Positions 2,076 to 33,140 of a stretch of 64,000 nucleotides of DNA are shown here, piece after piece. The stretch is from Candidatus Wolfebacteria bacterium GW2011_GWE2_44_13 (lineage in GTDB: Bacteria > Patescibacteriota > Minisyncoccia > UBA6257 > UBA9933): the NCBI GenBank assembly GCA_001000675.1, contig LCHW01000002.1, forward strand, positions 5,310-69,309, in the 5' to 3' direction. A program made the translations under genes and the position numbers. The notes beneath the pieces were generated by a model. The model was not told the origin of the DNA and did not search any database. It saw nothing but the letters and a program-made list of their open reading frames with translations. Each line of letters starts with the position of its first letter. Within the stretch, counting starts at the first letter, position 1.

Positions 2076-2143
2076 AGGAAGATGAGGAACTGATCTGATA
2101 AGAAAAGGGAATTGCACAGCGCGATTCCCTTTTCTTATGTGTG

Positions 2144-2225
2144 TGCCGGGGACAGGACTTGAACCTGCATACCTTGCGGTGCTTGCTCCTAAGGCAAGTG
2201 CGTCTGCCAATTTCGCCACCCCGGC
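2144..2225 (-). tRNA. tRNA-Leu (anticodon TAG), type II with long variable arm
   Basis: The reverse complement reads GCCGGGGTGGCGAAATTGGCAGACGCA-CTTGC CTTAGGA GCAAG-CACCGCAAGGTATG-CAGGTTCAAGTCCTG-TCCCCGGC-A. It has a 7-bp acceptor stem, a D-loop, an anticodon loop CUUAGGA, and a T-loop GGTTCAAGTCC. Confidence 0.8.
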
Positions 2226-15950: not shown

Positions 15951-16032
15951 GCGCGGGTGGCGGAATTGGTATACGCGTACGATTGAGGTTCGTATGGAGC
16001 AATCCATGGAGGTTCAAGTCCTCTCTCGCGCA
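15951..16032 (+). tRNA. tRNA-Leu (anticodon GAG), type II
   Basis: GCGCGGG-TG-GCGGAATTGGTATACGC-G-TACGA TTGAGGT TCGTA-TGGAGCAATCCATG-GGAGGTTCAAGTCCTCT-CTCGCGC-A. Acceptor and T arms pair cleanly, and the variable arm is long. Confidence 0.75.
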
Positions 16033-16040
16033 CATATATA

Positions 16041-30295: not shown

Positions 30296-31165
30296 ATGGA
30301 ATATATCATCCACCTCATAATTTTATTCGGTATCTATGGCATCCTTGCATTAAGCTTGGATCTTATCGTTGGGTTTACCGGATTGCTCTCGTTGTCACAC
30401 GCGGCATTCTATGGCATCGGTGCATATGCTGTTGCGGTACTAAGTACCACCTATGGTATGAACTTTTTTGTTGCCGCGTTGATTGGTATGAGCGTTGCGG
30501 CTGTTGTCGCACTGATGATTGGTTTTGTGTTAAGAAAATTCAAAGATGATTACTATGCGCTCGCATCGTTTGGATTTAACGTAATCGCAGTGAGCATCTT
30601 TTTAAACTGGGAATCAATAACAAAAGGCCCGCTCGGTATTCCAGGGATTAAGCGACCGGAACTGTTTGGATTTGTATTTTCGACGAACACGCTCTATATG
30701 ATTTTGACGCTAGCACTCTTTGCATTGACTGCGCTATTTGTGTGGCATATAACGAAGTCTTCATTTGGACGAGTGTTGCGAGCGATTCGAGAAGATGAAA
30801 AAGCACTGGAAGTATTTGGATATCGCATTACGCGGTATAAGCTTGCCATTTATGTCATTAGCGGGGCTCTAGCTGCCCTTGCGGGGGCGCTATACGCCTC
30901 GTATATCACGTACGTAGATCCATCTACCTTTACGGCGAATGAGTCCATCGTAATCCTTTCCATGATTATTTTAGGAGGGCTGGCGAGTTTGCGCGGGGCA
31001 ATCGTAGGGGCTGCAATTTTAATCGCCCTCCCCGAGGCGCTTCGGTTTGTGGGACTTCCAATGGACGTTGCCGCGCAACTTCGACAGGTAATTTATGGCC
31101 TTATTCTCGCCCTCCTCATGCTCTACCGCCCAAAGGGAATGTACGGGGAATATGAGATGAAATAA
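30296..31165 (+). CDS. livM: branched-chain amino acid ABC transporter permease LivM
   Basis: 289 aa; ILALSLDLIVGFTGLLSLSHAAFYGIGAY matches the LivM family. Confidence 0.85.
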   Translation: MEYIIHLIILFGIYGILALSLDLIVGFTGLLSLSHAAFYGIGAYAVAVLSTTYGMNFFVAALIGMSVAAVVALMIGFVLRKFKDDYYALASFGFNVIAVSIFLNWESITKGPLGIPGIKRPELFGFVFSTNTLYMILTLALFALTALFVWHITKSSFGRVLRAIREDEKALEVFGYRITRYKLAIYVISGALAALAGALYASYITYVDPSTFTANESIVILSMIILGGLASLRGAIVGAAILIALPEALRFVGLPMDVAAQLRQVIYGLILALLMLYRPKGMYGEYEMK

Positions 31166-31229
31166 AGGAGTTGTAAATATTATTTACAAATATATTGACA
31201 ATATATTTTACATGCAGTAATATAGGTGC

Positions 31230-32000
31230 ATGATTAAGAATCTTCAGGAGCTGCGAAAGAAAAACGAAGTATCTCAAGAGTATCTGGCAAGCTACCTCGG
31301 TATTTCGCGGCCCACGGTAGAGAAAATAGAAAAAGGCGAGAAGGACATCACCGTTTCGCAAGCAAAAAAACTGGCAAAATTATTCGAGCTCTCTCTGGAC
31401 GAGCTTATTAGTGGAAAAGTGAAAAGAACTATAGAAGTAACAATAGAGAAGGCAGTGGCAGCGGAACAAAAAGAAGCAATGGAAATCAGGATAAGCGTGC
31501 CACAAAAAAAGCTTAAAAAATTTAAGGAGGTATTGTTGTATATTTTGGAGCGGGTGGGAAGTAAGCCAAACGTAGGGATGACAGTAATCTACAAGCTACT
31601 TTACTTTATTGATTTCGATTATTATGAAAAATTCGAAGAGCAGCTTATCGGAGCTACGTATATTAAAAACCATTTTGGGCCAACCCCCGTGGAGTTTAAA
31701 AAAATAGTGGAGGCAATGGAGGAGCGCAAAGAGCTCGAATCTATTAAAAGTAAATACTTTGAGAAGGATCAAAAGAAATATCTCCCTTTGAGAAGGGCCG
31801 ATATCAGTGCGTTCTCGGGAGAAGAAATAAAACACATCGACGATATATTAAATAAGCTTGCCGACAAGTCGGCTAAGGAGCTTAGTGACTACTCGCATAA
31901 GGATGTTCCGTGGATAGCGGCTGAGGATGGAGAGCCAATTGATTACGAGTCAGTATTTTATAGAACTAAAGAAACCTCCGTTCGTGAGTATGAAAATTAA
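31230..32000 (+). CDS. HTH-XRE + Panacea (DUF4065/SocA-like) domain antitoxin
   Basis: N-terminal XRE HTH (LRKKNEVSQEYLASYLGISRPTVEKIEKGEKD) fused to a C-terminal domain (YKLLYFIDFDYYEKFEEQLIGATYIKNHFGPTP) typical of DUF4065. Confidence 0.6.
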   Translation: MIKNLQELRKKNEVSQEYLASYLGISRPTVEKIEKGEKDITVSQAKKLAKLFELSLDELISGKVKRTIEVTIEKAVAAEQKEAMEIRISVPQKKLKKFKEVLLYILERVGSKPNVGMTVIYKLLYFIDFDYYEKFEEQLIGATYIKNHFGPTPVEFKKIVEAMEERKELESIKSKYFEKDQKKYLPLRRADISAFSGEEIKHIDDILNKLADKSAKELSDYSHKDVPWIAAEDGEPIDYESVFYRTKETSVREYEN

Positions 32001-32364
32001 ATATCGAGAAACTGATGCGTTTTACAAGGATCTAAAAAAGCTTCTAAAGAAATTTGTAACATTGGAGGCTGATTTACGTGTTGCAAAAACCAACGCCATA
32101 GAAATGTATCATATAAAAAATGTTGATAACGAATCGGTATTTGCGTTGCAACATTTCTGCAGTGAAAATGTGCGGGTGTATAAACTAAAGAAATTTGCTT
32201 GCAAGTGCCTAAAGGGAAGAGGGATGAAAAGCGGAATACGAGTAATATATGCGTATTACCCTAAGGATTATGTTGTTGAGTTTGTCGAGATATATTTTAA
32301 AGGAGTGAAGGAAAATGAAGACAAGGAAAGAATAAAGGAGTATATAAAAGCGATTATAGAATAG
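31990..32364 (+). CDS. RelE/ParE-superfamily toxin-like protein
   Basis: ATG overlaps the upstream stop by 11 nt. FYKDLKKLLKKF...GIRVIYAYYPKDYVVEFVEIYFKG fits the RelE/ParE pattern. Confidence 0.5.
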   Translation: MKIKYRETDAFYKDLKKLLKKFVTLEADLRVAKTNAIEMYHIKNVDNESVFALQHFCSENVRVYKLKKFACKCLKGRGMKSGIRVIYAYYPKDYVVEFVEIYFKGVKENEDKERIKEYIKAIIE

Positions 32365-32384: not shown

Positions 32385-33140
32385 CTATACCGGTTTCGAA
32401 TCGAACGATGGCGCCATCATCCATGAACTTTGAAAAATAAGCTTCATAATTTGGGCGAGCTCCTTACTTTCAATAATAAAGCCAAAGCTTTCTTGGCGGG
32501 ATGAGATATAGGCAACCTTATTATCAAAAATACATAGCACACCGCTGAATACGTATTCTTTTGGAAGCCACTTTATTTCTCGAAGGACTTTCTTATTTGA
32601 TTGTAGATAATATTCAGGTATCTTGCTTTGGTTTGTTAAAAGCACCCGCGAGATGACTTCTCGTTTTACTCTTCGTTTTACCCAGCGTTCCATGTAGATA
32701 TTTCCAAATAAATCAATCAAATCGCTCATTGAGCTCCAGAAAAATTGCTCTTTTTGCTCGACAAGCAAAAGCTCTTCCATAATCGCCTTTGCTCCGACAA
32801 ACCCATCATAAAAGCGGATGGCGGGTTTGGGGGTGCTCTGGTTTCTTATTTCTGTTAGAAACGGCAAGAGCTCCTTAAAGGAGGAGAGCCTATCTTCATT
32901 TTTTGAGAGAAGGGTGCTTGGATCTTCTGCAATAAATAATCTCCGTTTTCCTTTTTTCGATTCGGTTATATAGCCCATCTGCAAAAGATCTAAAACGATG
33001 TCATAAACAGTTGTTCGCTTAATCCCCGTCTTATGCGCAATGTCTATGGTGGTTGCTCTGCCCAATTCCAGTATGGCCAAATACACTTCAGATTTTCTTG
33101 CACTCAATCCCTGTCTTACGAGTTCTTTTATGATGTCCAT
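32385..33140 (-). CDS. TrmB-family transcriptional regulator 4
   Basis: ELVRQGLSARKSEVYLAILELGRATTIDIAHKTGIKRTTVYDIV... Confidence 0.75.
   Translation of the reverse strand: MDIIKELVRQGLSARKSEVYLAILELGRATTIDIAHKTGIKRTTVYDIVLDLLQMGYITESKKGKRRLFIAEDPSTLLSKNEDRLSSFKELLPFLTEIRNQSTPKPAIRFYDGFVGAKAIMEELLLVEQKEQFFWSSMSDLIDLFGNIYMERWVKRRVKREVISRVLLTNQSKIPEYYLQSNKKVLREIKWLPKEYVFSGVLCIFDNKVAYISSRQESFGFIIESKELAQIMKLIFQSSWMMAPSFDSKPV

Follow-up and report, generated by a model that had tools for sequence, protein, structure and literature searches.

The locus described here lies in a 64,000-nucleotide (nt) stretch of contig LCHW01000002.1 (positions 5,310 to 69,309, forward strand; hereafter the window) from Candidatus Wolfebacteria bacterium GW2011_GWE2_44_13. 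Within an amino-acid transporter operon of this ultra-small groundwater bacterium sits a two-gene cassette, panA-panT, which very probably is a toxin-antitoxin (TA) module of the kind in which the antitoxin carries a Panacea domain (PanAT). The two open reading frames (ORFs) are arranged as follows:

31230-32000, plus strand: panA (ORF1), encoding a candidate antitoxin and autoregulator of 256 amino acids (aa), in which an XRE-type helix-turn-helix (HTH) is fused to a Panacea domain.
31990-32364, plus strand: panT (ORF2), encoding a 124-aa candidate RelE/HigB2-like toxin, with its ATG at 31990 and its stop codon at 32362-32364.
31990-32000, plus strand: 11-nt overlap between the end of panA and the start of panT, the panA TAA (31998-32000) lying inside panT.

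A first-pass annotation, made from the DNA letters alone, had given the same ORF coordinates, the same lengths and the same 11-nt overlap, and all of them proved exact. The overlap suggests translational coupling of the two genes. An alternative in-frame ATG at 31927 would yield a 145-aa version of ORF2; the start at 31990 is the supported one, because the homologue alignments begin at the MKIKY position. Both proteins are 100% identical to 'uncultured bacterium' ACD_81C00076 records (G0008 for panA and G0007 for panT), and the closest genome is that of Candidatus Wolfebacteria GW2011_GWB1_47_1, which places the window within the Patescibacteria.

The domain composition of PanA corresponds to what had been proposed, namely an N-terminal XRE-type HTH followed by a DUF4065/Panacea domain, with both Pfam models (PF01381 and PF13274) scoring above their gathering cut-offs:

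31242-31406, plus strand: XRE/Cro-C1-type HTH domain of PanA, residues 5-59 (HTH_3 PF01381, E 1.3e-14, 54 bits against a cut-off of 23).
31512-31991, plus strand: Panacea module of PanA, residues 95-254, including the C-terminal tail DYESVFYRTKETSVREY (residues 238-254).

The SocA_Panacea model PF13274 covers residues 121-228 (E 2.9e-18, 67.3 bits against a gathering score of 25.7), and the string YKLLYFIDFDYY, which the annotation had quoted, falls in the best-conserved part of this domain. Among close PanA homologues (alignment A3), the Panacea part and the tail are almost invariant, and the HTH and the linker (approximately residues 63-90) are more variable. Profile matches of the HTH in the PDB were CylR2, C.BclI, HipB and SinR; no relative of the Panacea part was detectable in the PDB by sequence profile. 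NCBIfam returned solely sub-threshold matches to HTH antitoxins, and the source records name the relatives of PanA 'DUF4065 / antitoxin SocA domain-containing protein'. The SocA equivalog model NF047745 (SocA_antitoxin) gave 14.3 bits (cut-off 190), which makes PanA a Panacea protein other than SocA.

For PanT, a RelE/ParE-like pattern had been noticed in the first-pass annotation, and both structure prediction and profile comparison bear this out. The AlphaFold model, built from a 49-sequence alignment, has a beta-alpha-alpha-beta4-alpha topology (predicted local distance difference test score, pLDDT, 89.6; predicted TM-score, pTM, 0.85). All but one of its 37 best Foldseek matches in the PDB are RelE-superfamily toxins, the exception being Cami1 (8phj). 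The top match is archaeal RelE (aRelE, 1wmi; E 1e-3, probability 1.0), and the others include Vibrio cholerae HigB2, Helicobacter pylori HP0892/HP0894, Escherichia coli RelE, YoeB and YafQ, Mycobacterium tuberculosis RelE and HigB1, PfiT and Shigella HigB. At the sequence level, a family profile of 49 close members matched HigB-2 in the PDB at E 0.007, and a profile of 61 diverse members (30-56% identical to the query) did so at E 2.5e-4. A RelE-superfamily fold of PanT is thus supported by the predicted structure and its Foldseek matches together with the HigB-2 profile similarity. The first-pass annotation had tied its reading to a Panacea-like C-terminus in the first protein and to RelE/ParE-fold similarity in the second; the former scores above the gathering threshold, and the predicted fold of the latter belongs to the RelE/ParE superfamily.

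The toxin falls into none of the named Pfam families (ParE_toxin PF05016, RelE PF06296, Gp49 PF05973 or YafQ PF15738), none of these reaching its threshold, nor into the NCBIfam RelE/ParE models, and membership in the Gp49/HigB family was rejected for want of a match. Among the 61 diverse members, weak and in every case sub-threshold matches were found to PF06296 (RelE; 6 of 61), the most frequent weak Pfam match in the family, and to PF05016 (ParE_toxin; 2 of 61). A single-sequence search of PDB sequences returned noise alone, the best match in PHROGs was an unnamed family (E 0.007), and the viral structure library BFVD contained no meaningful match. The family itself is large: a word-indexed search recovered more than 520 clusters of relatives at 90% identity, and an exhaustive search 727 clusters at 50% identity (E <= 1e-3). 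No precomputed Pfam domain is attached to any of the 120 relatives listed, although some Joint Genome Institute (JGI) records label theirs 'RelE'; the family is effectively covered by no Pfam model.

Alanine substitutions have shown that the activity of HigB2 depends on Arg51, Arg64, Tyr82 and Lys84, and its Lys/Gly-rich beta2-beta3 loop also matters for activity (Hadzi et al. 2017, PMC5416850). In an ungapped hidden Markov model (HMM) alignment, HigB2 Arg64, Tyr82 and Lys84 correspond to PanT Arg84, Tyr102 and Lys104, and the HigB2 loop ASKGKGKRGGS aligns with CLKGRGMKSGI of PanT. The corresponding features are:

32239-32241 (Arg84), 32293-32295 (Tyr102) and 32299-32301 (Lys104), plus strand: candidate active-site residues of PanT, from the HigB2 alignment.
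Residues 72-82 of PanT, plus strand: Lys/Gly-rich loop just before Arg84, shared with HigB2.

Across the alignment of diverse members, Lys104 is invariant, and conservation reaches at least 90% at Arg84, Tyr102 and Gly78. Residues 71-80 form the lowest-confidence stretch of the toxin model (pLDDT 65), which fits a disordered loop.

Since the nearest characterised relative of PanT is HigB-2, whose Arg/Tyr/Lys positions it keeps, the toxin would more probably be a ribosome-dependent mRNase of the RelE type than a ParE-type gyrase inhibitor. That PanT instead poisons gyrase, with a RelE-like fold turned to a different target, appears very unlikely to us. RelE and ParE do have one fold, and PfiT, which comes from a ParE-type pair, is found among the fold matches (ranks 8-14). 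The ParE_toxin matches in 2 of the 61 members reach E 0.011 at best, and ParE domains figure among the RelE-superfamily Panacea partners named in the PanAT survey (Kurata et al. 2022, PMC8832971), beside MqsR-like domains, cluster T28 (YoeB/ParE by HHpred) and cluster T14 (HigB-2, HHpred 99.7%). The best sequence and structure matches of PanT are, however, ribosome-dependent mRNases, and a gyrase inhibitor would leave unexplained the conserved HigB2/RelE-type Arg/Tyr/Lys residues and the basic, ribosome-contacting loop.

A relative of the toxin was also encountered in a very different protein. P0205 (3334 aa; L096:1753-11757), with Fil_haemagg_2 repeats, carries a C-terminal domain 39% identical to the toxin (residues 3220-3329, E 2e-23, within the C-terminal 115 residues of the protein). 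Its layout resembles that of a CdiA-type secreted polymorphic toxin, which would be an independent hint of toxicity. The contig ends 77 nt past the gene, beyond view of any immunity gene, and, this being a single contig, an artefact of gene calling or assembly is possible.

To follow the pair beyond the window, loci were scanned in one genome per species with alignment A1 (the diverse alignment A2 being too variable), which yielded relatives in 320 genomes, the best 80 of which were kept. In all 79 loci with readable upstream DNA, a full-length PanA homologue (tblastn, 47-84% identity) abuts or overlaps the toxin start, and the antitoxin gene is the upstream one in the window and in every one of these 79 homologous loci; in eight of the homologous loci the overlaps span 11-29 nt. 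The flanks are unrelated from locus to locus: an amino-acid permease and a DUF2188 gene in one, a methyltransferase and a ResIII helicase in another, uvrC/ddl and tRNA-Ala in a third. The pairing of panA with panT is far beyond chance. Approximately two-thirds of the 80 kept records bear names of the Candidate Phyla Radiation (CPR); the others are scattered over Nitrospinota, Terriglobia, Spirochaetota, Pseudomonadota, Bacilli and other groups, and some of them may be binning errors. With a Panacea domain in the antitoxin and a two-gene neighbourhood conserved in varied contexts (the FlaGs criterion), the window pair shows two of the features by which PanATs are recognised.

The association extends to distant relatives of the toxin (31-39% identical), where a Panacea gene adjoins in 5 of 5 loci, with the toxin gene downstream and overlapping by 8-29 nt in four and convergent in one. 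Two of these partners are readable in full, each a stand-alone Panacea protein of 180 aa that lacks an HTH; the remaining three run into contig ends. Both stand-alone proteins align to PanA residues 95-254 at 36-43% identity, tail included. The existence of such HTH-less partners suggests that the conserved unit consists of the Panacea module, its tail and the toxin, with the HTH as an addition in the clade of the window; as an addition, the HTH would not be the part that neutralises the toxin.

The co-variation of the Panacea module and tail, rather than the HTH, with the toxin is also what one would expect of a type VI system resembling SocAB, in which PanA would be a proteolytic adaptor handing an unstable toxin to ClpXP. 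SocA, the founding Panacea protein, delivers its toxin to ClpXP in just this way (Kurata et al., PMC8832971). In the same paper, however, the PanATs tested formed stable complexes, indicating direct neutralisation. In addition, PanA lies far below the SocA_antitoxin cut-off, the toxin fold is unrelated to that of SocB, and both the order of the genes and their overlap match a classical type II module. We therefore regard a SocAB-like mechanism as quite unlikely, and take direct neutralisation by the Panacea module as the working interpretation.

Several of the homologous loci have neighbours worth recording. At L090 (2501-4182; also L091), a distant toxin and its stand-alone Panacea gene are convergent, an arrangement atypical for TA modules, and lie beside an insertion sequence (DDE_Tnp_1) and a Vsr endonuclease gene. 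The module at L004 (1-3008) is located beside N6_N4_Mtase and ResIII/SNF2 helicase genes, and that at L093 (732-1658) beside a type I Methylase_S subunit; these restriction-modification neighbours hint at a defence-island context. At L006 (3083-3158; record named 'archaeon'), a tRNA-Ala(TGC) gene ends 74 bp before panA and four more tRNA genes follow 2-3 kb downstream, and this tRNA cluster may be an integration hotspot.

The 64-bp region between livM and panA holds a promoter and two operator-like boxes:

31171-31189, plus strand: operator-like box 1, a perfect 9+9 dyad TTGTAAATA-T-TATTTACAA.
31195-31212, plus strand: operator-like box 2, TTGACAATATATTTTACA, overlapping the -35 element and lying within a perfect 10+10 palindrome (31188-31208).
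31195-31223, plus strand: sigma-70-type promoter, with -35 TTGACA at 31195-31200, a 17-nt spacer and -10 TAATAT at 31218-31223.

The two boxes are direct copies of an 18-bp box, 24 bp apart, and the promoter scan gave 10 of 12 matches. As only 6 nt separate the -10 element from the ATG, the transcript, with its start site predicted from this spacing, would be leaderless or nearly so. Conservation of these motifs was assessed in 78 distinct upstream regions of homologous modules, with expectations derived from shuffles. TTGACA occurs 28-60 nt before the ATG in 54 of the 78 modules (0.74 expected), and in 26 of those 54 the -35 element starts 34-36 nt from the ATG, with the same leaderless spacing; the dyad TGTmwA-N3-7-TnnACA is present in 46 of the 78 regions (0.6 expected). 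Between the window and locus L009 of another Wolfebacteria genome, the segment 31171-31212 has two base differences only, a 16-bp indel lies just after the livM stop codon, and similarity ends at the toxin stop codon. No terminator-like site was found on the plus strand between livM and the module. An XRE-type HTH in the product and palindromic boxes, the predicted operators, at its own promoter are the hallmarks of an autoregulator. The position of box 2 over the -35 element fits repression by promoter occlusion, with the HTH as the presumed ligand, and the module is probably a self-repressed operon.

Two operator architectures were observed among the modules, in the upstream regions of L004, L006, L033, L034, L044 and others: a tandem TGTAAA-N5-TTTACA type, as in the window, and a second type consisting of a GTCAAAnTTATCCACA box and a 17-bp palindrome TGTCAATTATATTGACA over the -35 element. 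In the cases checked, the second type goes with PanAs that have a longer MIKHTF N-terminus. In one lineage (L001:2993-4375), a DUF2188 gene (76 aa) lies 2 nt upstream of panA, in place of the usual promoter-operator region, and DUF2188-panA-panT there is a possible three-gene operon.

In our view, the cassette is very probably an autoregulated PanAT operon of two genes, in which the antitoxin gene precedes the toxin gene. Transcription from a sigma-70-type promoter, which the two 18-bp dyad boxes overlap, would give rise to a leaderless bicistronic mRNA, and PanA, bound to the boxes through its N-terminal XRE HTH, would repress its own operon. The toxin would be kept inactive by the Panacea module and the C-terminal tail, which probably bind it directly, as stand-alone Panacea antitoxins are published to do. 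Once freed, it would most likely enter the ribosomal A site and cleave translating mRNA by means of Arg84, Tyr102, Lys104 and the Lys/Gly-rich loop, resulting in a growth stop. From sequences and models we infer that PanT would be toxic and neutralised by PanA, that PanA would bind DNA, that transcription would begin without a leader and that the toxin would act on RNA. As to its biological role, the module may persist selfishly, defend against phages or stabilise the locus.

A number of observations weigh against this interpretation. PanT has no match in Pfam, NCBIfam (E up to 1) or PADLOC, and the threshold of no curated family is reached. The Foldseek matches are marginal in E-value (1e-3 to 3e-1; probabilities 0.6-1.0) and moderate in TM-score on target length (0.5-0.7). 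The equivalent of HigB2 Arg51 falls outside the HMM alignment, and ungapped extension would place Cys71 at this position; Lys65, Lys67 and Lys68 on the same strand are candidate counterparts. The AlphaFold model of PanA is poor (overall pLDDT 54), with the HTH alone confident (pLDDT 81-86) and the Panacea part unmodelled, because the alignment is too shallow (64-85% identity); this model was left out of the fold search. Stand-alone Panacea neutralises directly, whereas in PanAs with several domains neutralisation falls to the other domains, and Panacea may be a sensor instead (Ernits et al. 2023, PMC10440598). Finally, Kurata et al. (PMC8832971) report that eight tested PanTs were non-toxic in E. 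coli, the HigB-2-like T14 being outside the tested set.

The non-toxic PanTs also speak for the view that there is no poison-antidote pair at all, and that a transcription factor is accompanied by a small, harmless accessory protein or co-regulator in which the RelE fold has been re-used; the retention of the pair in very small genomes, at one site and over a long divergence, would agree with this. Against it stand the catalytic residues conserved under strong purifying selection, the overlap, the autoregulatory architecture and the scatter across contexts and phyla, all typical of TA modules, as well as the toxin domain at the end of a giant haemagglutinin-repeat protein. We consider a harmless accessory highly improbable and retain the autoregulated TA operon as our interpretation.

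As had been stated in the first-pass annotation, the pair is wedged into a transporter array beside livM, and the annotation of the neighbours agrees. Upstream lie the livH and livM permease genes (BPD_transp_2), the livM-type gene at 30296-31165; downstream follow genes for a TrmB-like regulator, a Peripla_BP_6 binding protein and a LivG-type ATPase. The TrmB-like regulator gene (32385-33140, minus strand) is convergent with panA-panT. The cassette thus splits livH/livM from the LivG-type ATPase gene, amid a long run of Peripla_BP_6 and TrmB-like regulator genes. The whole array of paralogous Peripla_BP_6 (LivJ/K-like) genes extends on the plus strand over approximately 20900-46200 of the window, with binding-protein genes mostly alternating with minus-strand TrmB-like or AsnC/MarR-like regulator genes around a single livH-livM-livG set. 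It includes at least eight binding-protein-sized ORFs (360-400 aa), an expansion that is unusual given the size of a CPR genome (approximately 1 Mb).

The same livM/livG site is occupied in a complete Wolfebacteria genome, where the order is livH, an extra 127-aa ORF, livM, panA, panT and livG. The extra ORF (L009:857-1240, between livH and livM) is missing from the window, where the livH-livM gap is 2 nt. Between the two genomes sharing the site, PanA is 84% and the toxin 72% identical, compared with 62-64% for LivH, LivM and LivG. The pair is intact and has diverged less than the liv genes on either side, so its insertion is old, inherited and under purifying selection. The G+C content of the module is 0.35-0.40, versus 0.42-0.49 for livHM, and that of the cassette after the module is equally low. 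No integrase or transposase was seen among the annotated neighbouring genes, more than 15 kb separate the module from the tRNA genes found in the window (2143-2225 and 15951-16033), and the window holds no second copy of panA or panT. Relatives were likewise not found by tblastn in INPHARED phages and PLSDB plasmids or by a scan of IMG/VR viral contigs. The suggestion that the pair might be the residue of a mobile element found no support in these comparisons, and a decaying remnant was rejected, given the intact state of panA and panT and their higher conservation relative to the neighbouring genes. The data speak neither for nor against the other suggestion, a stabilising effect of the module on the transporter array.

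The pair is a clean and fairly ordinary PanAT example that changes no concept. It adds a well-delimited case to the PanAT catalogue, to which the conserved position within the liv operon is a further addition, and it gives a family annotated as 'hypothetical protein' a predicted function and three candidate catalytic residues. The family occurs mainly in Patescibacteria, whose genomes of about 1 Mb make any accessory module that they have kept informative, and the compact, conserved promoter-operator with its leaderless spacing could serve CPR genetics. Speculatively, and we think improbably, a toxin family paired solely with Panacea and concentrated in tiny-genome CPR bacteria might be one of their few abortive-infection or stress switches, in which a phage or host cue sensed by Panacea would free the mRNase, and the position in the liv operon could tie toxin:antitoxin dosage to the transcription of amino-acid uptake genes.

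To place the module among known systems, we compared it with four TA families. Caulobacter SocAB, a type VI system, likewise has a Panacea domain in the antitoxin. Its toxin SocB is, however, an unrelated DnaN-binding protein and SocA is a ClpXP adaptor, whereas the window toxin has a predicted RelE fold, and the mechanism is probably different; neither a SocA equivalog nor a SocB toxin is present in the window pair. With E. coli RelBE and archaeal aRelBE (PDB 4fxe, 1wmi) the module shares the RelE fold, the antitoxin-first operon and presumed autoregulation; it differs in that RelB, a ribbon-helix-helix protein, neutralises through a disordered tail, and HMMER detects no RelE sequence similarity in the window toxin.

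The V. cholerae HigB2-HigA2 pair (PDB 5ja8, 5jaa, 8a0x; PMC5416850) resembles the module in the toxin fold (TM-score up to 0.67), the Arg/Tyr/Lys positions, the Lys/Gly-rich loop before the catalytic Arg, the C-terminal helix and an XRE-type HTH antitoxin. The sequence alignment with HigB2 is limited to the C-terminal ~45 residues, and the window toxin remains below the PF06296 threshold. In higBA2 the toxin gene comes first, as is the rule for classical HigBA, and HigA2, which lacks Panacea, neutralises through an N-terminal disordered segment and has its HTH at the C-terminus; in the window pair, by contrast, the antitoxin gene comes first, the HTH is N-terminal and Panacea is C-terminal.

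The closest counterpart is found among the PanATs themselves. Panacea has been described as a hyperpromiscuous antitoxin domain, and an N-terminal HTH has been reported in 343 PanAs (Kurata et al. 2022, PMC8832971); there, both HTH-Panacea antitoxins and HigB2-like Panacea partners are already published. The nearest entry is PanT cluster T14 (pT15), of which the four rows considered are from Methanobacteriales, with the antitoxin-then-toxin order, overlaps of -8 and -17 nt and PanAs marked 'noNTD'. The families can be compared by description: the T14 PanAs in these rows are HTH-less and methanobacterial, whereas the PanA of the window carries an HTH and its clade is mostly patescibacterial, but the two share a Panacea antitoxin, an antitoxin-first order with overlapping genes (here -11 nt) and a toxin of predicted RelE fold closest to HigB-2.

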